A stretch of DNA of 62,999 bases, filler included, from Folioceros fuciformis (GCA_049999805.1; 14 parts of 14 records of this genome joined end to end with filler, not necessarily neighbours in it), one strand, 5' to 3'; positions 6,230 to 46,346 are shown, counted from the first letter of the whole stretch. Made by a program: numbers and translations. The notes: a model not told the origin generated them from the letters alone.

Positions 6230-6329
6230 NNNNNNNNNNNNNNNNNNNNNNNNNNNNNNNNNNNNNNNNNNNNTTAATTAATTAANNNNNNNNNNNNNNN
6301 NNNNNNNNNNNNNNNNNNNNNNNNNNNNN
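6230..6329. other. Artificial contig linker (44 N + TTAATTAATTAA + 44 N), first of 13
   Basis: Identical 100-bp linkers at 6230, 12824, 18557, 20650, 27073, 29557, 34452, 35778, 36908, 42668, 46391, 48136 and 54581. TTAATTAATTAA gives stops in all six frames. Confidence 0.98.
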
Positions 6330-6706: not shown

Positions 6707-9700
6707 ATGGCTAATGTGCAGGGATCAGACAATATCTCTCAGGTCGTGGGAGAGAAGTTGGATAACAAAAATTTTGCTTTGTGGAAGTTCAGGATGAAGA
6801 ACTTCTTGGTAGGTAGAGGCTATTGGGACCTCTGCACAGATGATGAGAGTGAACCAGAGATGAATCGTACTCCATCACAGGAGCAAAAGAATGCTCACAA
6901 GCATTGGACTGAGAGAGCATGTAAAGTGTTACACTGGCTCTCCTTAAGCATTTCAGATGCTATGGTCATACAGATCACGGGATGTGAGTCTCCGAAGGAT
7001 GCATGGGACATACTCATGAGGAACTATGGAAATGTCACACATGCTAGGAAAATCTAGTTGAAGCAGCAGTTCAACAACTTGTCACGAGGTAGCAGATCCA
7101 TACTCGTGTATACAACAGAGGTGAAGACCATAGCTGATCAACTTGCTACAATCGGTGCAAGTGTGACGAAAGATGACATGGTTGCAGTTACTCTGAACGG
7201 ACTTGGCAAGGAGTACAAGTCCTTTGACACATCAATCTCTGTGAGAGTTGAGTTCCCAAGTTGGGATGAATTGGTTGCTTTGTTGCTGCATGAGGAAGTT
7301 AAGCTTGGTCTGAACACAAGTTCAGGTATATCTCAAGGAAGAGACTGTTTTGTTTTCTAACCAGCGTGGGAGAGGCCACAGAGGTCGTGGTTCATTCCGG
7401 ACGGGGTGATGCTCGGAACACGCAAAATCAGCAAGACAATTGGCATGGAGGAAATGTGCAAGGCCAGAGAGAATCTGGAAGTTTTAAAGGCACAGGTAGA
7501 GCCACAAGAGGAAGAGATGGTTCTTTTCAATCTCATGACCATTCCAATAGAGACAAGGAGTGTTACTACTGTGGTAAGGTTGGTCATATTGCTAAGGACT
7601 GCTATAAGCAGCAAGCAGACATGAGAGGAAAAGAAAGGCAGCATGGGAACTATGCCTCCTCTAGTAATGCTGGAAATGACCAGGATAGGTTGTTTGCCAT
7701 GCAACATCTTTCTGAACAGGATGGGCAGAATGATGAGAGATGGTACATTGATTCAGGAGCATCAAACCACATGACTCCGCATGGTGAGTGGTTTAACAAG
7801 ATGGATGCAGGTCCCCATGGTCATGTGTGTACAGGAGATGACACACAACATGACATAAAGCACAGAGGAATTGTTCCTCTTAGGATGCCGAATGGTCAGC
7901 AGAAGAGTCTGCAAGATGTGTTGCATGTTCCAACCATTACGAAGAACCTGTTGTCTGTTGGACAGATGGCTGAACAAAATCTGCAGGTTCGATTCAATAA
8001 AGATGGATGCTTTATTGAAGAATATGACAAAGGGCGCAAACTAATTGCTAAAGGTAGTAGGAATGGACGGATGTTCACTCTGGATGCATCCATTCTAGAG
8101 CTAAATGCATCAATGTTTGCAAATGATGCAGGTGCCATACGTGATGTTGAAATATGGCATAAGAGGATTGGGCATGTGAACATAGAGAAGCTGAAATCTA
8201 TGCGACAGAAAAGCGTGGTGGAAGGATTGCCCAAGTTCAAGTATGCTGATCTTGGTCATGTGTGTTCTGCATGTCAATTTGGAAAACAGTCAAGGTTTCC
8301 ATTTGTGCAACACGTGCAGAACAGCTCGAGATGTTTGCAATTGATACACTCTGATGTATGGGGTCCTTCACATAATGCATCGTTTGGAGGAGCCCACTAC
8401 TATGTCTCCTTCATTAATGATTTCAGCAGGTACACGTGGCTGTACATACTGAAGCATTAGGATGAAGTGTTTGAGTCTTTCAAGGACTTCAAAAAGCATG
8501 CTGAAAATGAATTCAACTGCTCCATTTCTTGTCTAAGATCAGATGGAGGGGAAGAATATGTCTCAAATGAGTTTAACAGGTATCTTGCAAATCATGGTAT
8601 ACGAAGACAGTTGACTTGCAGATACACACCACAACAGAATGGTGTTGCAGAGAGGAAGAACAGGGTAGTCATGGAAACAGCAAGGGCAATGCTGAATGGG
8701 AAGTGCTTACCTAATGATTATTGGGCAGAAGCAATGATGACAGCAGTGTATGTACTGAATCGAACTCCTACGACAGGAATTCATGATGCTACACCAATTG
8801 AGAGACTGTATGGCTATAAGCCGGATATTAGGCACTTGAAAGTGTTTGGGTGCATTGCATATGTGCATGTACCTGATGAGAAGCGTAGGAAGCTAGATCC
8901 TAAAGTAGTGAAGAGTGTTTTTCTAGGGTATGCACGAAATAGGAAGGCATATAAGTGTTATGTGCCATCCACACATGAGATCCTGATAAGCAGGGATGTG
9001 GTATTTGATGAGTTAGCCTCCTAGTATAGCAACTCAGTTGCACTACCCTATGACGAACCCACAGGGGAGAGTACTGTTAAGAGTACTCCAGCAAAGAGTG
9101 AGGATGTGACCAATGGTGGATCACCAACGATGAATCCATGGTCTGGAAGACTGCGGAATGGTAAACAGAAGACCATTGACCTGGATATGTCAATGAGGGG
9201 GAGAGTAGAAAGCAGCAAAACTGGAAATGAGGGATATGAATCCTCAAGTAGTGAGAGCATTGACAGTGAGTTTGGCATTCCGTCTGTGGAAACGCCAGGT
9301 GCTAAGGAGCAACAATATGCAAGGCAGGTTCAAAATGAACCAAGACCAAGGAGATCTGAGAGGGTTAGGAAACCCATTGACAGGTACACCTATACAAGCT
9401 ACAATGCGCAACATTGTGCGTATATGACAAGAGTCACAGCTTGTAAGGAGCCAACCAAGTTTGCTGAGGCAGTGACAGATGATAAGTGGTGTCAAGCCAT
9501 GGATGAAGAATACTCAGCATTAGTTGAGAACGGAACGTGGGATTTGGTTCAATTGCCTGATGGCAAGGTTCCTATTGGTTCTAAGTGGGTGTACAAGCTG
9601 AAGTTCAAGTGAAATGGAACGCTGGAGCGTTACAAGGCCAGGTTGGTTGCAAAGGGATATGCACAACAGTATGGTCTTGATTATGAGGAAACCTTTAGTC

Positions 9701-10977
9701 CAGTAGCCAAGATGACAACTATAAGGATAGTTATAGCATTAGCAGCAGCTAAAGGATGGAAGTTATGGCAAATGGATGTCAAGAATGCCTTCTTGAATGG
9801 TGAGTTGCAGGAGGAAGTGTACGTGGAACAGCCTGAAGGCTATGTTCATCCTAAGTTTCCAACATACGTCTGCAAACTGAAGAAGGCATTGTATGGACTC
9901 AAACAGGCACCTAGAGCATGGAATGCTCGTATCACAAGCTATTTGAAGGAGAAAGGGTTTGTGATTGGAGACGCAGATCACAGTTTGTTTGTAAAACAGA
10001 CCAAGGTAGGACAAGTGTGTCTTGTCATTTATGTTGACGACTTGATCATCACAGGAGATGATGCAGATGGTATTGCAGATGTCAAGGCGAATCTGCAAAA
10101 AGAGTTCAAGGTGAAGGATCTTGGTGAACTCATATACTTCTTAGGAATTGAGGTTGTGTCTACACCTCAAGGAATCTGGCTATTCCAAAAACAATATGCT
10201 AAGGATATGTTGCAGAAGTATGGCATGGCAGATTGCAAAGTGATGGATACACCATTGGAGCAGAACGTCAAGCTGCACATGGATGTAGGAGCTGAGTTGG
10301 AAAATGTGACTATGTATCGACAGATGGTCGGAAGTTTGATCTACTTGACTATCACACGTCCTAACTTAAGTTATGCAGTGGGACTGATTAGTCAATTCAT
10401 GCAGAACCCAAGGAAACCGCACTTGGATGCAGGTAGAAGAATCATGAGATATGTGAAAGGAACTACTGAGTTTGGATTGCTCTATGAGCATAGGAAGCAT
10501 CCTGAACTGACATGATATACAGATGTTGATTGGGCTGGTTGTGCGTATGACAGAAGATCAACCAGTGGATATGCATTCGGTCTGGGAAGTAGTATGATCA
10601 GCTGGCAAAGCAAGAAACAACCGACAGTTGCTTTGTCAAGCACAAAAGCAGAGTATCGAGGAGCTGCAATGGCAGCCTGTGAAGCAGCTTGGTTGGAGAA
10701 GTTGCTACATGATCTTGGAAATATAGTGAACAGCAAGGTTACAATCTACTGTGACAACATGAGTAGCATGAGGTTGGCTACTAATCCTGTGTTTCATGCT
10801 CGTTCGAAGCACATAGAAGTACATTATCATTTCATCAGGGAAGCGGTATTATCTGAGAAGATAGATCTTCGGCACGTGAAGACCGAAGACCAGGTAGCAG
10901 ATATCTTTACTAAGTCGCTAGGTAGAGATAAGTTCTTACACTTTCGTGAACTACTTGGAGTGTTACAAATAGTCTGA
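6707..10977 (+). pseudogene. Copia-B gag-pol polyprotein, disrupted
   Basis: EKLDNKNFALWKFRM gag, [70 protein letters not shown]. One frameshift (about 7340) and in-frame stops at 7055, 8458, 9022, 9610 and 10513. Confidence 0.97.
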
Positions 10978-12823: not shown

Positions 12824-13612
12824 NNNNNNNNNNNNNNNNNNNNNNNNNNNNNNNNNNNNNNNNNNNNTTAATTAATTAANNNNNNNNNNNNNNNNNNNNN
12901 NNNNNNNNNNNNNNNNNNNNNNNGATTCTTCTTGGTGGCAAGTACCATTGTTCCCCTAACAAGAAGACGAAGAAGAAGAAGAAGGATAAGAAGAAGAAGA
13001 ATTGTATGATCGTGCACTTGAGGGCAGTTAGCTATGTGGGACTAGGTACTTCACAACTTTGTAGCTAGCCTAGCATGTTTTCCCTGCACCCCTGCACACT
13101 CTTCATGATGAGCACGTTGTACACGTGCTTTGCAGGGTCTCCTCAACGCCTTCTCCTTACTAATACTGCCGTATGTATATGATGCTGTACAGTGCAGGTG
13201 AAAGGACATTGGTAGCCAGTATGCCGAGGAGTATCAAGGCACAAGAGCTTGGCAGTTCCCAGGAAGCAGGTGAAACTAGCAACCCCAATCACAATCCAGG
13301 CAGTGCGACGCACATATCTAGACTTTTACTTAACGGCAATTCCTCGTCTAGTCACATCCAGGACCGTGTTGCCGTTTCGGCCTTCAAGATACCAACTGAC
13401 CCAACTGCGTGATGAGAAACAGAGACCGTGATACCATGGCTCGGTTAAAATGTCTTGGGGTATGTAGGTTGGCATGCACTTATCGTTGACAAGCCTTAGA
13501 TGAAATTCTTGTTGTTCTCATGGTGATTACCAAAATAATGGTACAAGTGAAATAAAGCGAAAGTTTAAAATTAAAAAAAAAAGTAAAAATTAAATCTAGA
13601 GCTGAAGCAAGT

Positions 13613-13748: not shown

Positions 13749-14184
13749 TGTAATGACTACTAGTATTCTGAGATGAGTGGCGTGTATCATTCCCAGCTTT
13801 AGTAGTGGCTTAGCTGTGGAGTATAAATAGGCCAGTGTTAAGGTCTTAAGTACAGACACTGATACACAAAGAGAGAGAGGCAGACAGTGAGAAGTCTAGC
13901 CTTGAGACATAGCTGTGGAGGGCTTGAAGAGCAAGCTTGTCAGATTGAGTCTAAGGTAGTAGCCAGTGGGGCGTAGATCGCTAGACTCTTTTGTAAGTAT
14001 CTGGAATAAAGAGCAGCACTTAAAGGAGGTGGTCTGCGAGTCGTCAGTGGACAGCAGGCTACTTGGAGCCTAGTGCTGAGTCGTGTGAGAGGGAGTGAGT
14101 GATTTCTAAGTGGAGCGCTGCGGAGTGAATAGACGAGATTTGAGGCCGTTGCTTCTTTTTATGCTGCGTAAGGAATAGGTGTTG
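13749..14184 (+). mobile_element. Probable 3' LTR of an unassigned element, cut at its end by the next insertion
   Basis: Purine-rich AAAAAGAATGGAG precedes TGTAATG; TATAAATA at about 13822; AATAAA at about 14005; ends GGTGTTG, resembling an LTR terminus. Confidence 0.5.
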
Positions 14185-14833
14185 TGTTGTGCCGCTAAAC
14201 ATTGCACTCATGCATGGTTCATTAGTTAACAATACTCACATCACACCACATTACACACAAATGAAACACTGCATGATGGTGCTACAGCTCTATAAGAATG
14301 AAGCGTTTGCTTCCTTTAGACGCCACAAAATCTCCTCCACCTGCATCCACACTTCTCAGGGCTGTAACTTGGCTTCTTAAATCCTCGATGGGGTCACATG
14401 ATCTTGCACACTATGCACACGCACACCTCAACCGGATTTCCAACAAGAGAATGCTCCCTTAAGAGAAAGCCTATTCCCAAAAAGCAAGAGAATACAAGCT
14501 TACAGCTGTAGTGGACATCGCTGAGCTAGGCTTTTATGCCTGCTACCTCAGACCTGCTGCAGCCACATCCACACATCTAGTTGACTTTATATTATATTAT
14601 ATTTTCTCATAATATCCACTAAATAATTATTAATTACCACTAATGCCATTTATTAGCATCACTTAATTATTGACTAATTACTCTTTGCATGCATCTAAGC
14701 GATAGCACACAATCATGCTTGACAGCTGACGTGTTGTGCCGCTAAACATCGCACTCATGCATGGTTCAATAGTTAACAATACTCACACCACACCACATTA
14801 TACACAGATTAAACACTGCATGATGGTGCTGCA
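14185..14833 (-). repeat. 3' LTR of the PHD-Gypsy element, with a 102-bp direct repeat at both ends
   Basis: 14185-14286 matches 14732-14833. Minus-strand PPT GGGGGGATAGAGG abuts TG at 14833, and the minus strand ends CA at 14185. Confidence 0.75.
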
Positions 14834-14958
14834 CCTCTATCCCCCCTGCTGGTTAGTACTCTGTCATCACATATATGCTGCAGCACTACTACAACATATT
14901 AAGAATTCAAACATACATATAACTCCTAAACACAACATCAATCATCCATCAACTTGTA

Positions 14959-15974
14959 TCACATGTTAATGAAGATTAGGTTGCTAGCTCGTGGCTTTAG
15001 CAACTTTGCACAGTCTGGGCAAAACCAATCTTCTTGCGGTACTTCTTCTAAGGCTAGCTGTAGACAAAACAAGTGATACCCTTGATTGCAACGGTCGCAC
15101 AAGAGTATGGCATCTTCTTCATCTTTGACCACAAATGCGGCATTCCAAGTCCTTGGGTGGTATCCAAGTGTTAGGTCGTAGCTCTGGATCCAGATCTAGC
15201 AAATGACAAGGAGCTAGGTTCTTCAAATGATCTTGCCACCTTCGTCCATCAGATCCCTTTAGCTCCACCACCCCAGTGTCCTTGACAACAACCACACGTA
15301 GAATTGTGCGCCCAACACTACTATCAAGTGTATCCGAAGGTTGTTGAGCCAAGTATACGTAATCACCAGATTCAAATCGACGCTCTTTGGGCTTCCAACT
15401 TCCTCCTTTTGTATAAGCATAGGGCAGTCTATCCCTATGTTGTGCAATGGTCAAATTTTCCATTGCCACTGGCATTATATGCTGAAACAATATTGCCCAT
15501 CTTTGCAATTATCTCATGCAACCATCCACATCTTGCCAGGTTATTAGTCTTTCCATAGCGGCTTGCTGCACATCAGGCAATTGTGGATGTCTCCCAAACA
15601 ATAGAAAATACGGAGAAAAGTTGGCAAGCGCGGCTTGAGTGCTTACCTGATAGCCTAGCAACATGTATGGCACCACTTCATCCCAATCTTTTGTGCTATT
15701 TTGCAAGCAATACTTCTGTAAGGCACGCTTGATAGTTTGCACTCCCCTTTCAACCAAACCATCTGCTTGCGGATGATCCCTGCTTGTGCGACGATGATCA
15801 ATGAGCGCCTTGTCCATAAGCTGTTGAAATTCCCCTCTAAACTCCGATCCTTGACCCGTCACAACTTTAGCACATGCACCAAACCTTGACAACACACATT
15901 GCAAAAATGCCTGGCTTGTGTTATACGACGTCTTCTCATGAAAAACAGCAACTTCAATCCATTTGGAGAAGTAC
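14959..15974 (-). pseudogene. Ty3/Gypsy integrase with C-terminal PHD finger
   Basis: rve core (YFSKWIEV, GQGSEFRGEF, HPQADGLVER, SPYFLLFGRHP) and an SH3-like segment (FESGDYVYL). Then, across a frameshift at about 15121: CRICGQ-DEEDAILLCDRCNQGYHLFCLQLALEEVPQEDWFCPDC (C4HC3). Confidence 0.9.
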
Positions 15975-16206
15975 TGGGCACTTAGAGAGGTGCAGTTGAC
16001 TGCTGGACAGCGAGGACTGTCCTACGCATGATCGAAGCTGGAGGGGAGCCCTCAAATCCGTCATCAAGTCGATTGAGTCCGAAGCAGCTAGGAACCTCAT
16101 CGCTCCTTCGTGGGAACGAAACCCAATGTCTCAACGACAGTGGGATAAGTGTGGCCGCTAAAGGTTGAACCCGTTGGCAAACAGTGCCCGGGGTTTTGCC
16201 ACCACA
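15975..16206 (-). mobile_element. Truncated LTR of high-copy family G (subfamily A)
   Basis: Reverse complement of TGTGGTGGCAAAACCCCGGGCAC..., matching 25603 onward. Terminus abuts Tork-like coding sequence at 16207. Confidence 0.9.
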
Positions 16207-17350
16207 AGAACCTTTGGAGATCTTCCAAGAACGATCTCCAAACCAACAGTGGTAGCCAGCGTCATCCAACTGCCCTGCGCTAATCATGCTTTTGGTCAAC
16301 TTCGGAACATGCCAAACATCCTTCAGTACAAATGAAGATCCATTGTCGAATGTCAGCTGCACATCTCGCAAGCGTAGTTATTTTCAAGCCGAACACATGC
16401 TTTCCTAGTAGCATCATAAGTGCTAAACCACTCCCTATGCGGAGGAACATAGAAAGATGTTCCAGAGTCAATTATCCAATTAGAGAATAAGTGACTCTCC
16501 ACGGCTGTCAGTTGTGCAGAATCGAAGGAAGAAGAGGTAAGAACATCTCCATCATCAACAGAGTTCACCTCGTCATGCTTGACACTCAGACTTTCCTTGT
16601 TGTCGCTCTGCTTCTTCTCCTTTCCTTTGTCCTTCTTGAACTTCTCGCAATCCCTTCTGATGTGACCCTTCTTGTGACAATAGTAACACTCAACATTATT
16701 ACGACTACGAGACTTACTACGGGAACGACTTTGCTCCTTGTACTTCCCCTTTGAAGTGGACCTTCCTCTCACCATGAGGGCATTGGAACCTTTCAAAGGT
16801 TCCATGTTCTTCCTGTTCACCTCTTTGTTAACACGCTACCTTCTACATTTACAACGGTAAGACCACTAGCAGGAGCGGAATTACTCAGAGCTGTGCGAAA
16901 CGTGTCCTAACTCTCTGGTAATGTGACCAACAGGAACATAACTCTCACGGCATCTGGGAACGAGATACCTTGAGATGAGAGCTGGCTGAAAATGGTATTG
17001 AACTCATTAACATGATTAGACATCCTCGTCCCTTCCTTCATCTTCAAGTCCACCAGGTGTTCCAACCAATACACCTGAGAAGCCGCACTTTGCTTCTCGT
17101 ACAGGTCACACAACTTCTGCCATAGCTCATAACTTATGGTCTTGTCTTTCATGTTGAAGTAGACCAACTTTGACAATGTTAGCATGATGGTAGACCTAGC
17201 AAGCTCATCTCGATCCTGCCACTCATCCTGAGTCATGCTAACGAGTTTCACTCCTAGCAACTTGATGGGCCTGATCCCGCGTATGCTTACGATACCCGCG
17301 CCGCGACTGGCCCTACTGGCCCAGCTGGCCTCGTCCACGTCGTCCACTGG
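16207..17350 (-). mobile_element. Tnt1/Tork-like Copia fragment (5' UTR, gag, protease), internally deleted
   Basis: Homologous to about 52930-54380 (ELWQKLCDLYEKQ, CYYCHKKGHIRRDC, WIIDSGTS). About 300 bp deleted at about 17275. Confidence 0.92.
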
Positions 17351-18480
17351 TGTGGAGGCAAAACCCCGGGCACTGATTGCCGACGGGTTCCACCTTTAGT
17401 GGCCACACTTATCCCACTGTCGTTGAGACATTCAGTTTCGTTCCCACGAAGGAGCGATGGGGTTCCTTGCTGCTGTGGATGGAGGGTCGGACTTGATCAA
17501 CTCAATGATGGATTCGAGGGCTCCCCTCCAGCTCCGATCAGGCGTAGGACAGGCCTCGCTGTCCAACGGTCAGCTGCACCTCTCTCGGTGCCCACAAACT
17601 CACTCCAGCCACTACAACGACTCTAACCTCTCAGATCTGCGACTTCCTTCACTCACTTCACTCACTCTCTCGTTCCAGCACCAACACCAACAACTACCAG
17701 CAACCAGCAACGACACCACTACCTTCTACACTTCCCTACGGACTCCTCCTACCCGGCAAGAGTCACTAGACTAACCCCAAACAAAAGGACGAAGGGAACA
17801 CACTCCCCTCTTGGGTATCTCCTCCCCACAACCTTACCAGACGCCATGAGACATGGCCGGCCTACAGCACTTGACCAAGCAAGGAACAAGAGTGGACAGG
17901 TTGAGAGAAAGACACACCCTTTACAATCAAGAGCTAGGGGCAAGCCCCTACACCCTGGTCATTACACCTTGTGATCCTACCAGACACTATACAACCGGCA
18001 ACACGCTGCCCGCGATCCTACCAGACACTGTACAGCCGGCAACACACGGCTTGCGATCCTACCAGACGTTGCACAGTCGGCAACACACTGCAGGCCCTAA
18101 ACCAAGCAGGGACAGACCACAAGAGCTCAAGAAGAGGGGACCTCCAAGAGCTCACAAAGAGATAGACTGACTCCCAAAGTGAATGACTCCCTCCTCCTAC
18201 AGGCTCACCTGATCTTATAGGAGCCTCTCTCTCTCTCTGACTTCACCTCTCTCTAACTTGAGAAATATTATTTTAATAGCCTAGCCGGCTGTCACCAGCC
18301 ACTTATTTAGACTTCTAGCACAACCTGCCACCAATGAGCCCCTGGCCCTACCACCACAAGGATCTACCACCTCTTAGACTATCTAGAGACTTTGGAGGAT
18401 GTCTGATCTTCAAAGGTTTGCGGACGCCGCCTCTTCCTTGCTGGATGGTTGCCAGCTAAGTCTTCCCCTGCAATTGTTCA
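17351..18480. mobile_element. LTR of family G (subfamily B), about 1.1 kb; far end approximate
   Basis: Starts TGTGGAGGCAAAACC; very similar to 26145-27072; contains three ~41-bp internal repeats (GATCCTACCAGAC...). Confidence 0.85.
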
Positions 18481-18656
18481 CCCTTGGTGGCTGAGCCAGC
18501 CTCTAGGGAAGAAGCATGAGCAATGGGAAAGATAGAGAAGAGGTGGGAAGGAGTGGNNNNNNNNNNNNNNNNNNNNNNNNNNNNNNNNNNNNNNNNNNNN
18601 TTAATTAATTAANNNNNNNNNNNNNNNNNNNNNNNNNNNNNNNNNNNNNNNNNNNN

Positions 18657-19355
18657 GCTGTCATGAGGGCCTCAGCCCAATAGCGAAGGGGCAGAGAAGC
18701 TTGATGAAGCATAGAGGAAGTCATTTCCTGCAAGGTCATATTCAAGTGTTCTGCCACACCATTTTGCTGTGGTGTATATACAATTGTGAGTTGCCTTCCT
18801 ATTCCCTCTGCTGTACGAAAAGATTGGAATTCACTAGAAGTAAATTCACCTCCATTATCTGATTTGAGGGTTTTTAACTGCTTGCCAGTCCAGCGTTCTG
18901 TGTACTTCATATATCCTTTGAAAAGAGAAAAGCATTCACTTTTGGCTTTGAGGATATAAGCAATGACAAACCTTGTTTTGTCATCTGTGAATGTCAGGAA
19001 ATATTTGCCTCCACCAATTGAAGGCAGTGAGAGAGGTCCACAGATGTCTGTGTGAACCAGCTCAAGAACTTATGAAGCCCTGTAGGGAGCTTTATTCTTA
19101 AAAGCTGCCTGATGACGTTTGGAGAAAACACAGGCTTCACAAAGAGGTAAGGGTGGCAATGTGCCAATTTTTCCATCAGCATACAGGTCACTGTGTGCAA
19201 GTTTCTGTAACTTAGCACTATGTGGGTGACCTAGGCGAGCATGCCATAATTTAGCTTTGTCTTCTAACTTACTAGTAGATTCTGTAGACTTAGAAGCTAA
19301 ATGTGTTTGTGCTGTATGGTTGTCTGTATGCAGACGGAAGAGGTCATGTGAGGAT
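18657..19355 (-). pseudogene. Copia integrase fragment (GAG-pre-int + rve)
   Basis: LWHARLGHP, CEACVFSK, LKSDNGGEF, PQQNGVAE, YWAEA. Confidence 0.9.
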
Positions 19356-19356
19356 G

Positions 19357-20649
19357 ACCCACTTCGATCCACGAGCTACCACAAGAGAACCTTTGGAGAT
19401 CTTCCAAGAACGATCTCCAAACCAACAATGGTAGTCAGCGTCATCTAAGTGCCCTGCACTAATCATGCTTTTGGTCAACTTCGGAACATGCCTAACATCC
19501 TTCAGTATGAATGAAGATCCATTGTCAAACTTCATCTGCACATCACCAACGCCTGCAATCTCGCATGCGTAGTTATTTCCAAGCCGAACACATCCTTTCC
19601 TAATAGCATCATAAGTGCTAAACCACTCCCTATGCGGAGTAACATGGAAAGATGCTCCAGAGTCAATTATCCAATTAGAGAATAAGTGACTCTCCACGGC
19701 TGTCAGTTGTGCAGAATCGAAGGAAGAAGAGATAAGAACAAGTCCATCGTCAAAAAAATTCACCTCGTTAGGCTTGATACTTGGACTTGCCTTGTTGTTG
19801 CTCTACTTCTTCTCCTTTCCTTTGTCCTTCTTGATCTTCTCGCAATCCTTCCTGATGTGACCCTTCTTGTGGCAATGATAACACTCAACATTGTTACGAT
19901 TACGAGGTTTGCTACGGGAAGAACTTCACTCCTTGTTCTTCCCCTTTAAAGTGGACCTTCCTCTCACCATGAGGGTATTGGAACCTTTCAAAGGTTCCAT
20001 ATTCTTCCTGTTCACCTCCTCTGTTAACAGGCTACCTTCTACATTTACAATGGTAAGACCACTGGCAGGAGCGAAATTACTCATAGCTGTACGAAAGGTG
20101 TCCTAGCTCTCTGGTAATGTGACCAACAAAAACATAGCTCTCACCGAATCTGGGAACGAGATACCTTGAGATGAGAGCTGGCTGAAAATTGTATTGAACT
20201 CGTTCAGATGATCGGACATCCTCGTCTCTTCCTTCATCTTCAAGTCCACCAGCTGTTTCAACCAGTACACTTGAGAAGCTGCACTTTGCTTCTCATACAG
20301 GTCACACAGCTTCAGCCATAGCTCGTAACTTGTGGTCTTGTCTTTAACATTGAAGTAGACCGACTTTGACCATATTAGCATGATGATAGACCTAGCAAGC
20401 TCATCTAGATCCTACTACTCATCCTGAGTCATGCTAACAGGTTTCACTCCTAGCAACTTTATCGGATTGATTTGCTTCTTGTGGACTAGAACATTATACA
20501 CTTGTTCTTTCCAGAACGGGAAGTTAGTACCATCTAACTTCTCGATATTGAACATGACATTTTCTGAGGACGCCATGTTTCAAAATCAATGCAAATGTCA
20601 GAGCAAAGTAAAATGCTTTGTTCATATGGAAGTGTCTTACAACAACAAT
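19357..20649 (-). mobile_element. Tnt1/Tork-like Copia fragment (gag-protease)
   Basis: Homologous to about 52900-54130; gag begins MASSENVMFNIEKLDGTNFPFWK; WIIDSGASFHV. Confidence 0.92.
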
Positions 20650-20749: not shown

Positions 20750-23700
20750 CTAGCTTTGCAACATCTCAATTTGGTCTTATAAACTAGAGCAAGGCTACCG
20801 TCGCCCTTGGAATGGGTAGGGAAGTAACCCTTACTGACGTAATAGCAAGCTTACTCGCTGAAGAAGTGCATCGTGATGCACATAAGAAGTCTTCGGCAGG
20901 CTCTTACGCCAGCGGACCCAAAGCTTTGTTTGCCTCCAAAGGCAAGTTCAAGAAACCCAAAAGATCTACAAGCGTTAACTATAATGGTCAGGTCTCAAAC
21001 AATAATCCTCGAAAGAATCAAAAGGGACCCTGCAATTGGTCCAGGATCCCTGCACACTGGGAAAAGGAATGTCGCAAAAAACAAACTGGCGAGCTCCGAA
21101 AGCCCCAACAACCAGAATCTTATATGGCCTCAACCTCGAAACTGACGGTTCTGGTCAGCAGCCTACCAGCCTCTGCAACTCTTTGCAAAACTGGTGCCTG
21201 GTTTCTGGATAGTGGTGCCACTCACCATGTATGTAACTGCGAGCAAGCCTTTGACTCCCTTCAAAGATTCGACCAAGGACACGATTTAGTGGCTAGCAAC
21301 AAATCTTCCTGCAAAAATGTAGGCGTAGGCTCTATGACTCTCATAAATTCTTCTGGACGACTGTTTGCTTTCAAACAAGTCCTTTACGTGCCAACCATGA
21401 TCAAAAACCTGGTCAGTGTCTCCAAGTTGCTACATATTGGAGACTATTTGATTCATTTCACCAAAGGAGGATGTAGAGTTTTAAACAAGCCTGACCGCAA
21501 ACCCCTATTATCAGGACAACTTATGGAGGACCTATACAAGCTCGATTTGTATTTTTACTTACCTCCACAGCAATGCTAATCACTTCACAAGCAAGTCAGG
21601 GTCTTGTAGACCCTTCCGCGCTCTGGCATGCCAAGCTCGGCCATGAGAGTTATAAACGACTTGCTGAACTATCCAACAAGGACCTCTACCGGCATAAGAT
21701 GCCCACCTTGACAGATATTCTGTTATGTGATGCTTGTGCAAAAGGCAAGATTAAGCAAACACCTTATTCTAAGATGTTCTCATACAGAGCCTCAGCGCCG
21801 CTAGAACTTGTACACGCAGATCTATGCGGACCTATCTGAACACCTTCCTTTGGAGGCTCCATCTAGTTTATGCTGTTTGTTGATGACTACTTGCAAATGA
21901 CATTCACTTATTTTCTACAAAAGAAAAGCCAAGCGCTTTAGACCTTTCAAGAGTATCTGTCAATGGCAGATAGAACATTCCCTCAAACAGTTACGCACAA
22001 ATGGCGCTAGCGAATTAAACTCCAACGCATTCATTGCATTCTGCTCAGAGCGTGGTATTGTCAAACAGGTTATAGTTCCACACTCCTCTACCATGAACGG
22101 GGTGGCTGAAAATAAATATCAAGTCCTACAGTATTTCACATGCACAATGCTACTGCAGGCTGGTTTGAGCAAACACTACTGGGCAGAGGCAGTTGATACA
22201 GCCAATTACATTCTCAATCGGTTACCCTCTGTGGCTATCGGCGATCAAATTCCATTTACCTTATGGACTGGCCCTAAGCCTTCCTTAGCAGACATACGTG
22301 TGTTTGGATCACCCAACTATGTGTATGTCCCATCCGCTTTGCGTACAAAGTTTGACGCTAGATTTGAGCAGTATATACTTGTTGGATACATGGAAGGCAT
22401 GAAGGCTTATAAGTTGCTACATCCTACCACACACACTCCTCGGTTCGCACATAGTGTGCTCATCAACGAAGCCGCAGTACTTCAGCCCCATCAGGCTTCG
22501 TCTACGGAATCAACCTATGTACATTTTGAACCTGCTGATGTGCACGAGCCTAGGGGAGAATTATTGCAGTCGCTATCTACTAACATATTACCTTTTTCAA
22601 ACTCAATGGGAGTACAATCTTCAGCTGCCGCTTCAACGACCTCTACAATACCTACGACAGTTTCACCCACTGTCAATACACCATTCGCGACTATACCATT
22701 AGCTGCACCCCCCAAAATTGACACGGATTCTGAGACTACTGAGTTTATGAATGAAAGAGACTATTCAGCTCAACAAACTAACCACGAAGATTCACCTGAT
22801 GATGATGTCACTGATGCTACACCTGCTGATAAGGAGTCTCAAGTACTTGAACTCGAATTACTTCCTCTAAGGAGGTCTTCCAGACACCACACTAGAAATA
22901 GGCAAGAATGGGTACAGCCCCGTTTAGTCCTACAAATTGTTGGAACAATAATGAACCAAGTACTGCAATCGCAACTGTGTCGGCTCTTAGCTCTCATCAG
23001 GACAGTGACTCCACAATGAAGACTGATTCGGGACATTTAGCACAAATTCTTATAGAAGCATCAGAAGTCTCAGGGACCCTCAATTGGGATGAGGCTATGA
23101 ACAGTCCAGAGAAGGACAACTGGATCAAAGCTGCAGACAAAGAATATGCTTCCCTCATGGAAAACAAAACCTGGATACTTGAAGAGCCTCCACCGGGCCG
23201 CAGAGCAATCGACTCCAAATGGGTTTTTAAAAAGAAGTTCAAAGCATATGGAACTATCAAAAGATTCAAAGCCAGATTTGTTGCTAGGGGGTTTCGACAA
23301 CAGAATGGAATTGACTACCTTGAACATGAATTGTACTCTCTAGTGGTTTGAACTTCAACAGTAAGATTTCTACTTGCTCTGACTGCTAAGCTTAATCTAG
23401 AGCTCGAGCACATGGATGTCACCAAAGCATTCCTCTATGGCGACCTGGAAGAGACAATCTATGTTACCCAACCTCAAGGGTACGTGCAAAAGAAGCAGGA
23501 ACAGAAAGCTTGCAAATTACTCAAGGCCCTTTACGGTTTCAAACAGGCTCCGAGAGTGTGGTATAACAGAATCAATGCTTACCTACTGTCTCTTGGGTTT
23601 GTCAATGCAGACTCCGATCCTAACATGTACGTCTTACTGAATGACTGTGGCATGGTCATAATTGCGTTATACATAGATGATCTAATGGTTGTTGCAACCA

Positions 23701-25602: not shown

Positions 25603-26144
25603 TGTGGTGGCAAAACCCCGGGCACTGTTTGCCAACGGGTTCAACCTTTAGCAGCCACACTTATCCCACTGTCGTTAAGACATTGGGTTTCGTTCCCAGG
25701 AAGGAGCGATGGGGTTCCTAGCTGCTTTGGATGGAGGGTAGGACTCAACCAACTCGATGACGGATTCGAGGGCTCCCCTCTAGCTCTGATTAGGCGTAGG
25801 ACAGTCCTCGCTGTTCAGCAGTCAACTACACCTCTCTCAGTGCCCACAAACTCACTCCAGTCTCTACAACGACCCTAACTTTTCAAATCTGCGACTTCCC
25901 TCGCTTCACTTCACTCACTCACTTACTCACTTACTCACTTACTCACTCACTCACTACAGCACCAGCACCAGCAACGACACCACTACCTTCTACGGTTCCC
26001 TATGGACTTCCCCTACCTGGCAAGAGTCACTAGACTAACCTCGAAGAAAAGCATGCCACTACCCACGATCCTACCAGACACTATGCAAGCACGGTCGGCA
26101 CTCACTCCAGCCCTGCAAGGAAACGAAAGTGACAGATTATGGGG
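25603..26144. mobile_element. LTR family G subfamily A, interrupted
   Basis: Starts TGTGGTGGCAAAACC and shares diagnostic variants with 15975-16206. Confidence 0.88.
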
Positions 26145-27072
26145 TGTGGAGGCAAAACCCCGGGCACTGATTGCCGACGGGTTCCACCTTTAGTGGCCAC
26201 ACTTATCCCACTATCGCTGAGACATTGGGTTTCGTTCCCACGAAGGAGCGATGGGGTTCCTTGCTGCTGTGGATGGAGGGTCGGACTTGATCGACTCGAT
26301 GTTGGATTCGAGGGCTCCCCTCCAGCTCCGATCAGGCGTAGGACAGGCCTCGCTGTCCAGCGGTCAGCTGCACCTCTCTCGGTGCCCACAAACTCACTCC
26401 AGTCACTACAACGACTTTAACCTCTCAGATCTGCGACTTCCCTCACTCACTTCACTCACTCTCTCACTCTAGTACCAACACCTGCAGCTAATTACGACAC
26501 CACTACCTTCTACACTTCCCTACTGACTCCTCCTACCCGGCAAGAGTCACTAGACTAACCCCAAAGAAAAGAAAGAAAGAAAGGAACACACTCCCCTCTT
26601 GGGTATCTCCTCCCCACAACCTTACCAGACGCCATGAGACATGGTCGGCCTACAGCACTTGCCCAAACAGGGAACAAGAGTGGATAGGTCGAGAGGAAGA
26701 CATCCTTTACAATCAAGAGCTAGGGGCAAGCCCCTTCAACTTGGTCATTACACCTCGTGATCCTACCAGACACTATACAACTGGCAACACACTGCCCGCA
26801 CTCCTACCAGACGCTGTACAGTCGGCAACACGCTGCCTGCGATCCTACCAGACACTGTACAGCCAACAACACGCGGCTTGCGATCCTACCAGACATTGCA
26901 CAGCCGGCAACACACTGCAGGTCCTAAACCAAGCAGGAACAGACCATAAGAGCTCATGAAGAGAGGACTTCCAAGAGCTCACAAAGTGACAGACTGACTC
27001 CCAAAGTGAATGACTCCTTCCTCCTACAGGCTCACCTGATCTTATAGGAGCCTCTCTCTCTCTCTGACTTCA
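26145..27072. mobile_element. LTR family G subfamily B, truncated by gap
   Basis: Starts TGTGGAGGCAAAACC; collinear with 17351-18244. Confidence 0.9.
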
Positions 27073-27172: not shown

Positions 27173-29556
27173 GACATGTTTCTTCCCCGCTCGAGTTTCC
27201 ACTTCGAAGTCGTATTCCTCGAGGAGTAGGACCCACTTGGCGATTCTTCTCAAAAGGTCCGGCTTGTTGACCAGGTATTTCAATGCAAAGTGATCCACAT
27301 GGAACACTACCTTGCACGCCAAGAGGTAATGTCGAAATTTCTTGCAGGCATATATGATGCCCAACGGTTCTCTTTCAGTCGTTGAATAATTCCGTTTTGC
27401 ATTAGTCAGCTGCCTGCCAGAGTAAAAGATGGGATGGTCGCGACTCTATGTGTCCCGCTGGTTGAGAATAGCTCCGATGGCGTAAGCGGACACATCCACG
27501 TCCACATGGAACGTCTTCTCCCAGTTCGGAGGTTGTAGCGTTGGTGCCCGAACCAGGCCTGCCTTCAATTGTTGGAATGCTGCCTGCCTCTCAGCGGTCC
27601 ACTCGAAAGGGACGTCTTTCTTGGTGAGCTGGGTAAGAGGAGCAGCCTTCTTGGCAAAGTTGCAGACGAAGCGGCGGTAGTACCCTACCAAACCGACAAA
27701 GGCGCGCACCTGTCTCATGTTTTGCGGGGCGTCCATCTCAGCGATTACTTTGACCTTCTCGTGGTCCACCTATAGTCCCCATGCTGACACTCGATGAGCT
27801 AGCAGGATGCCTTCCGTCATCCTGAAGTAGCACTTGCCAGGGTGGAGCTTGAGATTTGTTTCCCGGCACCTCTGCAGACACTTGCGTAGGTGATCCAGGT
27901 GCAGTTCCCGCTTCCCAAATACGCAAAAGTCATCTAAGACGACTTCCATGATCTTTCGGAGCAAGTCCTTGAAAATGGTATTCACCACTCTCTGAAAGGT
28001 CGCGGGGGCATTGGAGAGACCGAAAGGAAGCTTAGAGTACGCAAAGGTTCCCCAATCCGTCGTGAAGGTGGTCTTCTCCTGATCTTCTTTTCGCAGAGAA
28101 ATCTGATTGTAGCCAGAATACCCATCCAGGAAGCTGTACATCTCGTGGCCCGCGACGGTATCCAGCATGCTGTCCAGGAAGGGCAAAGGGTGATGATCCT
28201 TCTTGGTGGCCTCATTCAGTTTACGGAAGTCCTGGCAGACCCTGACCTTCCCGGGCTGTTTCTTGGGCACTACCACGATGGGAGCCACCCAATCACTGGT
28301 GCAGACGGGGTAAATTACTCCCGCCTCCAGATACTGGTCTAGTTGCTCTTTCACCACCATCGAATACTTGGGAGTCAACCGATATTGCTTCACCCTCACC
28401 GGAGTGCTTCCTTCCTTCAGGTCGATACAATGAATTCCCAACTCTTCTGGTATTCCAGTCATATCGATTACTTTGAACGCAAATACATCAATGTATTCCT
28501 GTAGGAGGGCCTTCAGTCCCTCTCGCTCCTCGGGCCACAAATGTTTGGACACTTTGACACTCTTACCAGGCTCAAGTTCCATTTCTTCCACCGCATCGGG
28601 GTCGACATAGACCCCTTCGGGACTGCTGCCTACACTCATCCCGGATTCCCACTCGGGAAAATCCTGATCAAAAGCTCGCCCCTTCCAAAAAGCCGAGCCT
28701 TCCCTCCGACCCTCGTCTTCCTCCCCGGGGGACTCCTTCCAGGTGATGGGTGTTTCCGCGAGCGGAGGCAGGCCCTCCTCCGGTCTGTCCTCCACGATTG
28801 CATCCACCCGATAGCCCGCGGGTCGTCAGCGTGTCTCTCCTCCCCGTAGAGCCCTTGATATGCCCCCGAGGAGCTGTCCCCCGTTCCTCCGGAAGTGTAA
28901 CCTGCTGTGGGCAGTTCAGTCTCCCCTCCGTAGGGCGCTCTGCTCCAGGAGACGAAAGCGGTCCCCTTGGCCCCTGCTTGTCGAGTTGTAAAGGTGATGC
29001 CTCACCTCCCGAAATCGAAGACACAAGCGGTGCCGTACAGCCATGGCCTTCCCAAGAGAACCTTATACCCCAAATCAGACACAGGTCGCATAACGATGTA
29101 GGTCAGATAGAAGGTGACTTCTCCAATCATTGTGGGCACATTCCAAAGTACTCCCAAGGGTTTCCTCTTGGTTTGATCAGCCATGCGTAGATAAACTCGG
29201 GCTGGTGTGAACTCCGTAAAACCCAGACGATGTGCTGTTTCTTCAATCATCAAGTTGACCCCAGACCCGGTATCTAGTGGTACCTCCAAGATTAGGCAGC
29301 CTGCCACCTCAATCTCGATTTCAGGTGCTCCGCGATCCACCAACTCCACCAGATTGACCTCCACGAACGGGTTCTTCACAGTTAAGGGTTTCGGAATTCC
29401 GCGAATTGTCTCCTTCACGATCTTGCGAGATCTTGGGCTGACTGCCAATAGTTGCCGCAGGCTAATCACGAACTCATGGTCGAGAAGGGCGTCTGCGAAG
29501 TTCGCGATTTGGTCCGAGAGGGTTGGTCGCCCTGACCTGCCGTCGTCGTTTCCTGG
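27173..29556 (-). pseudogene. Ty3/Gypsy pol fragment (protease, RT, RNase H), probably non-chromovirus
   Basis: LDTGSGVNL protease; WVAPIVVVPKK, CQDFRKLN, FLDGYSGYNQI, PFGLSNAPATFQR, VLDDF RT; DVSAYAIGA, KFRHYLL, DHFALKYL RNase H. In-frame TAG stops. Confidence 0.95.
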
Positions 29557-37007: not shown

Positions 37008-40000
37008 CTCTGGTCCATCTATAGATAGTGTCGTAAGTATTCCTCTTGGATTCTGTTTACCCTTTTTGTAGATCCATCTATATCAGGGTGATATGTTGTG
37101 CTTAAACATAGTTGCACTCCTAAGCTCTTCATAAGCTGTTGCCAAAATTTTGCTGTGAATTTGGGATCTCTGTTACTCACAATTTGCATAGGCAATCCAG
37201 GTAACACATAGATATGCTTCTTAAACAATTGAGAATTTCTAAAGCCTTCACTTGCTTCTTCGTGGGGATAAAGTGTGCTTGCTTGCTGAACCTATCAACA
37301 ATTGTCATGATAGCTGTGTATCCAATATTGGGTGGCAATAACATAACAAAATCCATTGATATACTCTTCAAAGGCCCACTTGGAATAGGCAAGGGTTGCA
37401 ACAAACCTTGCGGATTTGTCTGCTCTACCTTATCCTGCTGATAGTCTACACAGGACTTCACATATTCTACAGTATGTTTGTACATTCTAGGCTAGTAAAA
37501 CAGCTTCTTCAACTTCTCATAAGTTGTGTTAATTCCCCGATGACCAACATTTGGCACATCGTGACATTCTGCAAGCAACTTCCTTCTCAACTCTTGAGAA
37601 TCAGGAATCACAATCCTGTTTTGCTTGAACATTAACAAGCCATTTCTAAGCTTAAACTTAGACCCGGGTTGCTCCACCTCATTGATCCAATCTTGCACTA
37701 ATGGATCACGCAGATAAGCCTCCTTAATTTGCGTGTGAGTGTCCTTTGGCTCAATCACCATCTGTGTTGCAGCTAGCTTAGGACCCTTTAGCTTAAAAAC
37801 AGGTATTGAACTTAACTCATGCTTGCGACTAAGAGCATCTGCCACGAGATTCTCCTTCCCTAGCTTGTACTTAATCTCCACATCATACATCGCTAAGAAA
37901 TCTTGCCATCTAGCTTGTCTTGCATTTAGTTGCAGCTGATTAGAAAAGAAGCTTGTACTTACGTTATCTGTGTATAGCACAAAAGATCTTCCAAGAAGAT
38001 AGTGTCTCCAAATCTTGAGACAATTGATGACGGCAGTCATCTCCTTCTTATATGTGGGGTATTTCCTCTCATGTTCATGCAACTTTCTTGATTCGTAAGC
38101 CACTGGCCTACCTTCTTGCATAAACACTCCTCCTACAGTTGTATTTGATGCATCAGTATACACTTCTATATCTTTCTTTGGATCATAGATTGCTAATACT
38201 GGGGTAGTGTTGAGTTTCAACTTGAGAAACTCGACTGCCCTTTAACATTCCTCATCCCACTTCCAAGCCTTCGCCTTCTTCAAGAGATCAGTTAATGGGG
38301 CAGCAATTTTGGCAAACATCGATACAAATCTTCTGTACCCGCTAGCCAATCCTAAAAACATATGCACTTTGTGCACATTGCTTGGCGGTAGCCAACTCTG
38401 TATGGCCTTTACCTTATCAGGATCCATCCTGATTCCATCAGCAGAGACAATGAATCCAAGGAAGTCTATCTCTTCCTTAACAAAGTCACACTTTGTTATA
38501 GCTAAGAACAAAGAATTTGCCCTTAACCTTTCTTTCTTTCGCGAAGAAAAGGTCTGATTATCCGTAGCTCAAGCTACATCCAGAGTACACCACTTGCACA
38601 CACAACTGCAAAGGCATTAGTCTAACCGCAAATTCCAAGACTGCAAACATAAACAAATATGATCTATCGTGCCAACGAGAGAACCCTCTTCAATGGGTGG
38701 CTCACCTCCCCCACGGGCAGGAGTGGTTCCACTGGTCATTATGCTCGAGGAATCCGGCTATCTTCCACTCACTTCGTCTGAGCTTGTTGTGGGCGGAAGT
38801 ACGAATGCTCTCCGCAGTCACCAGGACCTGTTCCCAGATACGCCAAAGTAGAGCTTTCCTTGATATCGGGTCATTACCGCCATAGACCATTGTTGTCTAA
38901 TTTTGCCACAGGGCGAAGAGAGATAGAGACCAAACCACTCCCCACCACTGCTTCTGGACAAGAGGCTCTCCTGTCCGCTCATCAAGCTCGAATAGGGCGG
39001 TTTGTTCTGTAACCAAAATGGTTCTCTCTGGGAGAAGGTTTTGAAGCCACCTGCCAACTTCAATCCAAACAGCTTGCGCATAGTCGCACTGAAAGAAGAT
39101 ATGTTGGCTTTTGTGAGAGGCTCCCACACTACAAAGCCAACACCACTCCTCCCCTGTGGCTGCCAGCAACCCGTCCTAGCCATCTGCGTTAGGCAAACAA
39201 GCTTGAAAGAAACACCAGATGGTAACCCGCACCTTGGGGGGAACCTCAATGGTTGACCACAGGAGTTTAATTGTTGCCTTCTGGCGACGTTAGGAGATCC
39301 TCAATCTAGGAGCCAGTCAACTTCGCTGAAGCGATTTCTGTGCGCGCACCAATCGAAGGTAGATGGCTGCCGAAGGAAAGTTGAAGAGTGATCTCGCGTC
39401 CGCTTGCATCCATTCGGAGCTCCCATGCCACGTATACAGGTCAGGTCTCATCACTAATTCCCAATTCTCCTTCAATCAAAACCAACATCTTACAGGACTT
39501 TGGTGCAGAGGTTGCTTCTTGCTGTCATGTTCTTCTTGGGTGAGCCAATGCCCCGCACCTTAACCTTTAACCCTTAACCTTACGCCCTTAACCTTTCCAA
39601 CACTTTCCTCAAGTGTTGGACATGCTCCTCTAAGGTCGAACTGAATATCAAAATGTCATCCAAGTAGATCACAACACACTCATCCAACAGATCTCTGAAT
39701 ATAGCATTCATGAGAGTCTGAAATGTGGTTGGTGCGTTAGTAAGTCCAAATGGCATGACTAGAAATTCAAAAGATCCATACCTTGTGCTACAAGCAGTTT
39801 TGTATTCATGTCCTTCTGCGATGTGAATTTGGTAATAACTAGCCATCAAATCTAGTCAGGTAAAATACTTAGCACCGTTCAACTTGTCAAACATATGATC
39901 CATCCTTGGCAAAGGATAGGAATTCTTGACTGTTATCTGGTTGAGTGCTCTGTAATCCAAGCATAACCTTAATCCTCCATTCTTCTTTCGCGTAAACAAT

Positions 40001-46000: not shown

Positions 46001-46346
46001 AGAGAAAATTAAGTGGCGTGAGAAGCATAATCCTTATTGTGACCGAGTGCCTTATGAAGGCACTAAAACCGTTATTACAGTTAGGGTTTCGATTCACTTG
46101 TAACTTAAATTAAACCCGCTAATATCTAGAGAATTACTAAACTGTATTTTATATATAATAATAAATATAAATGCAATATGCCACTGCTAGACTATACTAC
46201 AATTACACTTCTAATTTCTTTTTCTCCCACTTAGGCTAGTATGTGGCATATCGTTTCACTTCGCGTTCGTTCGTCTTGACCAAATCCTGAATCATGCACC
46301 TCAACGAGACTCGTCAGCGCTTCGCGATGCTTAAATGATTGAATTC

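Follow-up and report, generated by a model that had tools for sequence, protein, structure and literature searches.

Integration targeting by plant Gypsy retrotransposons is usually credited to chromodomains, next to which a clade of elements equipped with PHD fingers would provide a second, independent reader module. The locus described here was originally predicted to encode a Gypsy integrase that ends in a PHD finger and has no chromodomain, which raises the question of whether such a clade exists. We asked whether the integrase is of the Gypsy type, whether the finger was inherited with it or captured on a single occasion, in which host the family resides, and what the finger may bind.

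A split PHD finger at the end of a truncated integrase

The window, i.e. the whole stretch of DNA that was analysed (62,999 nucleotides), consists of 14 contigs of 1.0-8.3 kb with a G+C content of 43-60%. These contigs are joined by 13 spacers (44 N + TTAATTAATTAA + 44 N, located at 6230-6329, 12824-12923, 18557-18656 and ten more sites), so that features on different contigs cannot be read as neighbours. The locus of interest sits in the contig piece 12924-18556, and its genuine context is just those 5.6 kb. At gathering scores, Rfam gave no match across the whole window. The last two thirds of a Ty3/Gypsy-type integrase, with a C4HC3 PHD finger at the C-terminal end, are encoded on the minus strand at 15974-14959. 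This stretch comprises the following features.

15512..15974, minus strand: C-terminal part of the integrase catalytic core, starting abruptly within the core, with everything upstream missing
15509..15511, minus strand: in-frame premature TAA
15143..15508, minus strand: integrase C-terminal region followed by a linker, with an AMENL-IAQHRD motif, an SH3-like GDYVYL...LRV...G block and an ..APCHL motif
15010..15142, minus strand: C4HC3 PHD finger (Pfam PF00628) split by a frameshift
14959..14961, minus strand: natural stop TGA, 16 amino acids past the last Cys

The catalytic core obtains 23.7 bits with Pfam rve (E = 5.7e-5), which is under the cut-off of 32.6 because just profile positions 33-102 are present in the fragment; the same stretch is collinear with the related protein P0003 from residue 708 of the latter on. 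No Pfam family matches 15143-15508. In agreement with the predicted extent of the finger, its zinc ligands run from C1 at 15142-15140 to C8 at 15012-15010. When an X is placed at the frame break, Pfam PHD matches the finger at E = 9.4e-12, with a score of 45.2 bits where 24 is required, and the half downstream of the break alone gives E = 2.4e-11.

The reading frame is interrupted twice. A stop followed by continuation in a shifted frame had been noticed near 15121, and the translations bear this out: minus-strand frame A reads ...PPKDLECRICGQR and then meets a TGA at 15121-15119, and the frame starting at 15123 reads DEEDAILLCDRCNQGYHLFCLQLALEEVPQEDWFCPDCAKLLKPRASNLIFINM (its opening being quoted as DEEDAILLCDRCNQGYHLFCLQLALEEVPQEDWFCPDC...) up to the TGA at 14961-14959. 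The break falls within 15130-15124, leaving C1 and C2 in one frame and C3-C8 in another. The premature TAA, apparent from both the ORF list and the translation, is a second defect beside the frameshift. The TAA is peculiar to the window copy, since at 15509 and 15511 other letters are found in every covering contig of three DNA runs from the same organism (8, 7 and 5-6 contigs). With one premature stop and one frameshift, this copy is dead as well as truncated.

A Pfam Chromo match, the criterion for a chromovirus, was not found in the fragment at E ≤ 0.1. The PHD finger, after which the protein ends within 4-16 amino acids, occupies the position of a chromodomain, with none of the latter, as had been proposed.

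Assignment of the integrase to Gypsy elements

On the coding strand, the fragment is preceded by two repeats that lie outside the element.

15975..16206, no strand assigned: inverted, truncated piece of a very abundant repeat (self-comparison and contig depth)
16207..17395, minus strand: Copia gag / zinc knuckle / Pol_BBD fragment (Retrotran_gag_2, E = 1.1e-25, and Pol_BBD)

The succession of gag, Pol_BBD and rve was considered as a single element in Copia order and rejected, as self-comparison resolves it into separate repeats with junctions at 16206/16207 and 15974/15975. By the same method, 16207-17276 has counterparts in three further Copia copies, located on three other contigs, with which it shares 89-92% identity.

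In a tblastn comparison, residues 708-992 of P0003 match 15976-15122 with 48.6% identity over 286 amino acids (E = 2.6e-80), and residues 992-1032 align to 15126-15004; P0003 and the window tail are 47% identical over 88% of the tail. As sequence matches, the P0003 alignment and the PHD score far exceed chance. Relatives of the integrase hold RVT_1, RT_RNaseH, Integrase_H2C2, rve, and PHD in a single ORF, in which RVT_1 stands upstream, and no RVT_2 stands downstream as it does in Ty1/Copia. Judged by these relatives, the integrase is of the Gypsy type rather than the Copia type, in line with the original prediction. Since RT, RNaseH, and the integrase N-terminus are missing from the window copy, its own domain order is deduced from relatives, which are at most 53% identical to it, and its membership of the Gypsy elements is argued from 42-50% identity to relatives together with the tree described below.

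An RT/RNaseH sequence at 28558-27185 was examined as the possible missing half of the element. We kept it apart because its contig is a different one and its identity to P0003 is no more than 36%. Together with 37213-38532 and 39577-40122, it belongs to a set of other Gypsy-type RT/RNaseH/integrase fragments in the window (27185-28558 and the two others, all on the minus strand; 26-36% identical to P0003) that are located on other contigs and probably represent different lineages. Much of the window consists of Copia copies about 90% alike, at 8461-10977 (plus strand), 18605-20411 (minus strand), 20788-23019 (plus strand), 43583-46001, and 51639-54058, whose domains are Retrotran_gag_2, Pol_BBD, gag_pre-integrs, rve, SH3_retrovirus, and RVT_2.

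Flanking sequences of the copy

Three features lie beyond the stop codon.

14840..14850, minus strand: purine-rich run (AGGGGGGA at 14847-14840), candidate polypurine tract, read from the sequence
14731..14840, minus strand: 110-base unit that would open the terminal repeat region (self-comparison and contig depth)
14184..14293, minus strand: second copy of the 110-base unit, 92.7% identical to the first

The stop, polypurine tract, and LTR expected downstream of the finger were recovered in part: the stop, a candidate purine run, and a repeat from 14840 are present. The stop and the first repeated unit are separated by 119 bases. Over the 110-base unit, the contigs add up to a depth of 390-1750, compared with about 100-200 outside it, a roughly tenfold increase, and loose contig ends mark its edges at 14840 and 14724-14731. 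The sequence before the copy at 14184-14293 matches the loose-end consensus of most other contigs before the unit. The region at 14731-14840 fits the start of a terminal repeat, and the unit at 14184-14293 may belong either to a single long LTR or to a different element. The arrangement of 110, 437 and 110 bases was also considered as a DIRS-like split repeat, which it may be by analogy with KnitGypsy-Dnmt3 as described in the main text of PMC5890265.

At the other end, the copy had been placed inside another LTR. It does abut an abundant repeat, but the 5' junction is an internal breakpoint and not a clean LTR insertion. The 232 bases at 15975-16206 match 17594-17351, 25846-25603, and 26388-26145 at 85-88% and have a summed contig depth of 4e3 to 1.3e5. 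This abundant repeat normally runs on where the integrase begins, so that two truncated repeats are joined at 15974/15975. The junction could be due to rearrangement or to an assembly error (chimera), and among the records listed no contig bridges it. As the contig passes into a different repeat at 15975, no second LTR can be seen to pair with the first. Copies of the abundant repeat occur in several orientations in the window (15975-16206, 17349-18245, 25603-26051, and 26143-27072), with a depth of up to ~1.3e5 in one run.

The PHD finger in related proteins

Word-indexed searches yielded 2 longer relatives among 388 candidates and 5 relatives of similar length among 41. All seven contain both rve and Pfam PHD, five of them have RT and/or RNaseH domains in the same ORF, and a chromodomain was found in none of the seven by Pfam scanning. 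When the window tail was aligned with these seven relatives, 38 columns were invariant, including the eight zinc ligands in 8/8 sequences, and the order was collinear in all eight: integrase motifs, SH3-like block, ...CAPCHL, a linker of ~20 residues, and the PHD finger.

A profile of the integrase and PHD region was then searched against 1.84 billion cluster representatives, retrieving 1,152 proteins at E ≤ 1e-30. The best 150 of these all have E ≤ 7e-107, nearly all are aligned through the PHD positions, and 138 of the 150 possess the strict C4HC3 motif. From the best 150, we took every third representative and dropped the four longest; in the resulting sample of 46, Pfam detected rve in 46, PHD in 44, Integrase_H2C2 in 42, RT_RNaseH in 12, RVT_1 in 11, DNA_methylase in 5, and Chromo in none.

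Among the 138 motif-bearing representatives, 80 (P0029-P0175) extend for 200-500 amino acids more after the PHD finger, in a region to which no Pfam family corresponds. As an Atlas lead, one such tail falls near phage/bacterial clusters, some of which have MTS (26%) or N6_Mtase (14%); the tail may be an adenine methyltransferase like those reported in passages of the preprint 10.64898/2026.05.21.726589. Further Atlas leads, at scores below 0.9 and to be taken as leads only, are Chlorophyta and Mollusca clusters with rve and PHD. Among these eukaryotic retrotransposon proteins and those related to the gag fragment, P0012, a member of the P0003 cluster, is filed under an uncultured cyanobacterium and P0179 under Enterobacter, labels that probably reflect contamination or mis-binning.

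A FastTree phylogeny of the integrase-to-PHD region (153 rows, 7 short-match rows being dropped) places the window copy on a long branch in a 15-row set with an SH-like support of 98. This set includes P0003, P0025, P0027, and P0028, and 12 of its rows end at most 40 amino acids after the PHD finger. The tree gives sub-clade placement only, because its root is arbitrary and all rows were chosen for having the region.

These data bear on a possible one-off event, in which the exon of a host PHD protein was captured by the element or the contig is a chimera of integrase and host gene fragments. Such an origin would suit the frame break inside the finger and the mosaic of truncated repeats that makes up the contig. 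However, collinearity with the relatives extends from the core all the way to the last Cys, the two halves of the finger find their match in the same relatives, the motif is kept in 138 of the best 150 of the 1,152 representatives, and many host contigs cover the finger region. A single capture is already refuted because relatives carry the PHD finger, and we regard this origin as a whole as extremely improbable. The PF00628 match and the in-frame relatives are the opposite of the two outcomes named beforehand as speaking against the prediction, i.e. no PHD profile match, or a finger never in frame elsewhere. On the strength of the alignments, we consider the PHD finger to be an inherited feature of the family and not a one-off capture.

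Structure of related elements and association with a DNA methyltransferase

A scan of metagenome contigs gave 153 stretches encoding relatives, 80 of which were kept. Among 23 loci examined, the motif is in frame in 13, with the stop located 4 amino acids (11 loci) or 13 amino acids (2 loci) past the finger. Direct repeats of 320-342 bases with 86-92% identity flank four of the 23 loci (L008, L035, L038, and L068), where the 3' repeat begins ~280 bases past the stop, and weaker flanking repeats are seen in two more. The intact element L001 (976-8229) is made of two abutting ORFs. Its ORF1 encodes a C5 DNA_methylase (PF00145, E = 1.8e-13) and shows weak aspartyl-protease matches below the Pfam cut-offs; its ORF2 encodes RVT_1, RNaseH, Integrase_H2C2, rve, and PHD.

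Of the best 150 of the 1,152 representatives, 72 contain a stretch that resembles a DNA methyltransferase (DNMT) and is homologous to the one in L001. Where at least 400 amino acids are available upstream of the integrase, the proportion is 54 of 64 representatives, with the stretch directly upstream of the integrase in 48. It is likewise present in 42 of the 80 metagenome loci, and 28 of the 32 loci with upstream room have it at most 2.5 kb before RT. The position of the DNMT varies within the clade, either between protease and RT (L001 and the 28 loci) or between RNaseH and integrase. In the sub-clade of the window copy, the protein ends just after the PHD finger and the C5 DNMT is usually located between protease and RT. 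The clade thus consists in large part of Gypsy elements equipped with both a DNMT and a PHD finger. No match to DNMT-like sequence was found anywhere in the window, and the region of the copy where it would be expected is missing.

The family in its host

Contigs of four sequencing runs were compared with the stretch at ≥80% likeness. Three are DNA runs, which are not independent because they come from one sample; of the words of the stretch, 53% occur in two DNA runs of one sample. At this threshold, the three DNA runs contain 414, 502, and 251 contig pieces of the family. The commonest differences among these pieces are C>T and G>A, an excess that fits the decay of methylated repeats. An insertion of 2 letters is present at the frame break in one contig. 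Of the listed records spanning this site, five exceed the window by a net 2 letters and one aligns through it without a gap. Because the crossing records are net 2 letters longer, the PHD finger is apparently unbroken in at least some other host copies. The family is thus multi-copy and decayed in the host. No RNA run is listed among the sequencing runs that contain the stretch, and the run guessed to be RNA yielded 5 pieces, which are all less than 90% alike and fit in part only. Over 14600-16100, nearly all differences listed for run X3 are G>A, at full depth and absent from X1 and X2 there, a pattern that looks like a bisulfite or enzymatic-conversion library.

The Copia gag fragment of the same contig provides a clue to the identity of the host. 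It has 22 relatives among 318 candidates; 11 of them are named, ten being from the fern Adiantum nelumboides (57-67% identity) and one bearing a bacterial label that surely reflects contamination. By this likeness, a land-plant host is plausible for the contig, as originally suggested, and the host is probably fern-like or another non-seed land plant. Alternatively, the contig may originate in an alga or some other associate of the plant-like host, in which case the element would be an ordinary green-algal Gypsy with a PHD finger. The chlorophytes Haematococcus lacustris and Scenedesmus sp. are the only relatives of the element named as eukaryotes, and the window is made of short contigs whose G+C content ranges from 43% to 60%, both of which would agree with an algal source. 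Against it, ten of the eleven named relatives of the same-contig gag fragment are from the fern, copies with 89-92% identity to this fragment exist on three more contigs of the window, the runs of the host contain diverged contig pieces of the family by the hundreds, and the G+C content of the fragment is 45%, versus a median of 42% (33-51%) for the metagenome loci of the relatives. We consider an algal or other associated source improbable.

It is conceivable, and we propose it tentatively, that a Gypsy clade of the green lineage in which a PHD finger fused to the integrase is combined with an element-encoded C5 DNMT has a multi-copy branch in a vascular, fern-like land plant. If true, algae would not be the only hosts of retrotransposons able both to read histone tails and to write DNA methylation, and Gypsy elements with PHD and DNMT would have entered land plants, or persisted in them, outside the clades presented in the main text of the REXdb survey.

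Type and possible role of the PHD finger

The finger displays a Gly at the second position ahead of the His with an aromatic neighbour, an LLCD-x-C strand, and a CL...P-x-x-W-x-CP-x-C tail. In PHD fingers, the position two residues before the His is that of the aromatic-cage Trp. Its replacement by Gly, which had been pointed out for the window copy, extends to the family: Gly is found in 7 of the 8 aligned sequences and Asp in the eighth, and the consensus of the 46 sampled representatives reads GWH. The lack of a cage Trp at this position, as seen in the window copy, is a trait of unmethylated-H3K4 readers. Some H3K4me0 readers also use an acidic residue before Cys1 to contact K4. The Asp noted before Cys1 fares less well in this regard: the window copy does have acidic residues (D and E at most 3 residues before Cys1), but they are absent from the relatives in the 8-sequence alignment.

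Using phmmer against the PDB, we found the nearest solved PHD fingers to be those of MLL3/KMT2C, WSTF, ATXR5, KMT2D, CHD4 PHD2, DPF2/3, BAZ2A/B, KDM5A/B PHD1, UHRF1, PHF21A, and AIRE, with E-values of 2.9e-14 to 4.6e-6 (2.9e-14 to 1e-10 for the best). The PHD fingers of MLL3, WSTF, ATXR5, CHD4, DPF, BAZ2, KDM5 (PHD1), UHRF1, PHF21A, and AIRE read unmodified H3, not H3K4me3. For the intact tail closest to that of the window copy (P0005), AlphaFold gave a model with a mean pLDDT of 48 and a pTM of 0.30, values too low for it to be of use.

Because the nearest solved PHD fingers are unmodified-H3 readers, we infer a role in tethering to nucleosomes free of H3K4me3. Placed directly after the SH3-like C-terminal domain, the finger takes the place of the chromovirus chromodomain. 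In active members of the family, to judge from sequence resemblance, it would bind the N-terminal tail of histone H3, most likely without K4 trimethylation. By analogy with the chromodomain, this binding may tie the integration complex to nucleosomes lacking H3K4me3, away from active promoters. Taken as a whole, the most satisfactory explanation, which we hold to be very probable, is that the window copy is a dead Ty3/Gypsy remnant with an inherited PHD finger at the integrase C-terminus that would have mediated tethering to H3.

The frequent association with a DNMT suggests another role, in which the finger would serve the DNMT of the element as a reader that guides or gates methylation, integration targeting being secondary or absent. 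The ADD domain of DNMT3 is a reader of this type. The co-occurrence of DNMT and PHD in 54 of 64 representatives and 28 of 32 metagenome loci, and the PF00145 match in ORF1 of L001, would be in keeping with it. Nevertheless, the PHD finger is always right behind the integrase C-terminal domain and the DNMT changes place, the two are encoded by different ORFs in L001, and the window is devoid of DNMT-like sequence. Because the finger keeps its place behind the integrase while the DNMT moves, we judge service to the DNMT to be the less likely role, with a small chance of being correct, and we favour tethering of the integrase to H3. The binding preference of the PHD reader is measurable and comparable with insertion maps. 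In this respect, the value of the window copy, which is dead, is that of a pointer to the family.

Comparison with known systems

PHD fingers in retrotransposons have been published already and are known from green-algal elements. According to passages of PMC6673714, many retrotransposons encode PHD fingers, which are widespread in eukaryotic retrotransposons like chromodomains. PHD is described as a common accessory domain of C. reinhardtii transposons (PMC8557442), as part of Gypsy-7a_cRei (PMC9940879), and as present in some Ginger1 transposases (PMC2836005). Among 823 chromatin-TE fusion gene models, most involve PHD or Chromo, as stated in a portion of the preprint 10.1101/2021.11.30.470311. 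Section 9 of PMC5890265 describes Gypsy elements with Dnmt3 in Klebsormidium, and the term "Gypsy-DNMT3" already occurs in the literature. Outside supplements, we found no paper that joins a PHD domain, Gypsy, polyprotein, and DNMT. The likely fern-like host, together with the DNMT-carrying relatives, suggests that classifications of land-plant transposons miss a lineage, one that may interact with both histone marks and DNA methylation.

The Chlamydomonas elements REM1 and Gypsy-7a_cRei resemble the window family, by description only, in being Gypsy-type elements with an accessory PHD finger; taken together, passages of PMC6673714, PMC8557442, and PMC9940879 mention PHD fingers in REM1, as the original prediction had it, in Gypsy-7a_cRei, and as an accessory domain frequent in C. 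reinhardtii transposons. In Gypsy-7a_cRei, the PHD finger precedes INT according to a figure legend of PMC9940879, whereas it follows the integrase in the window family. The Chlamydomonas elements are algal, whereas the host of the window copy is probably a fern-like land plant. REM1 reportedly also has a chromodomain.

KnitGypsy-Dnmt3 of Klebsormidium nitens, as described in the main text of PMC5890265, is a Gypsy element of a streptophyte whose pol polyprotein includes a C5 DNMT, and most relatives of the window copy are similarly equipped with a DNMT-like sequence. By description only, the window copy differs from it in having no DNMT, as that region is missing, and the main text of PMC5890265 does not mention PHD.

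The solved PHD fingers and that of the family have the C4HC3 spacing and the LLCD-x-C strand in common, and both show a small residue at the second position ahead of the His as well as the tail CL-x-P-x-L...P-x-G-x-W-x-CP-x-C. Unlike the finger of the window family, which lacks a conserved acidic residue at its N-terminal edge, they belong to host chromatin proteins.

Chromoviruses (Tekay, Reina, CRM, Galadriel, Tcn1, and Chlamyvir) are alike in placing a chromatin reader at the integrase C-terminus. The presumed role of their chromodomain is to tether integration to a chromatin state, as given in passages of PMC6317226 and PMC6673714, and PHD does not occur in the main text of PMC6317226, the REXdb survey of LTR elements in plants. 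The reader of chromoviruses is a chromodomain, whereas that of the window copy is a PHD finger; neither this copy nor any of the 46 sampled relatives has a Chromo match.
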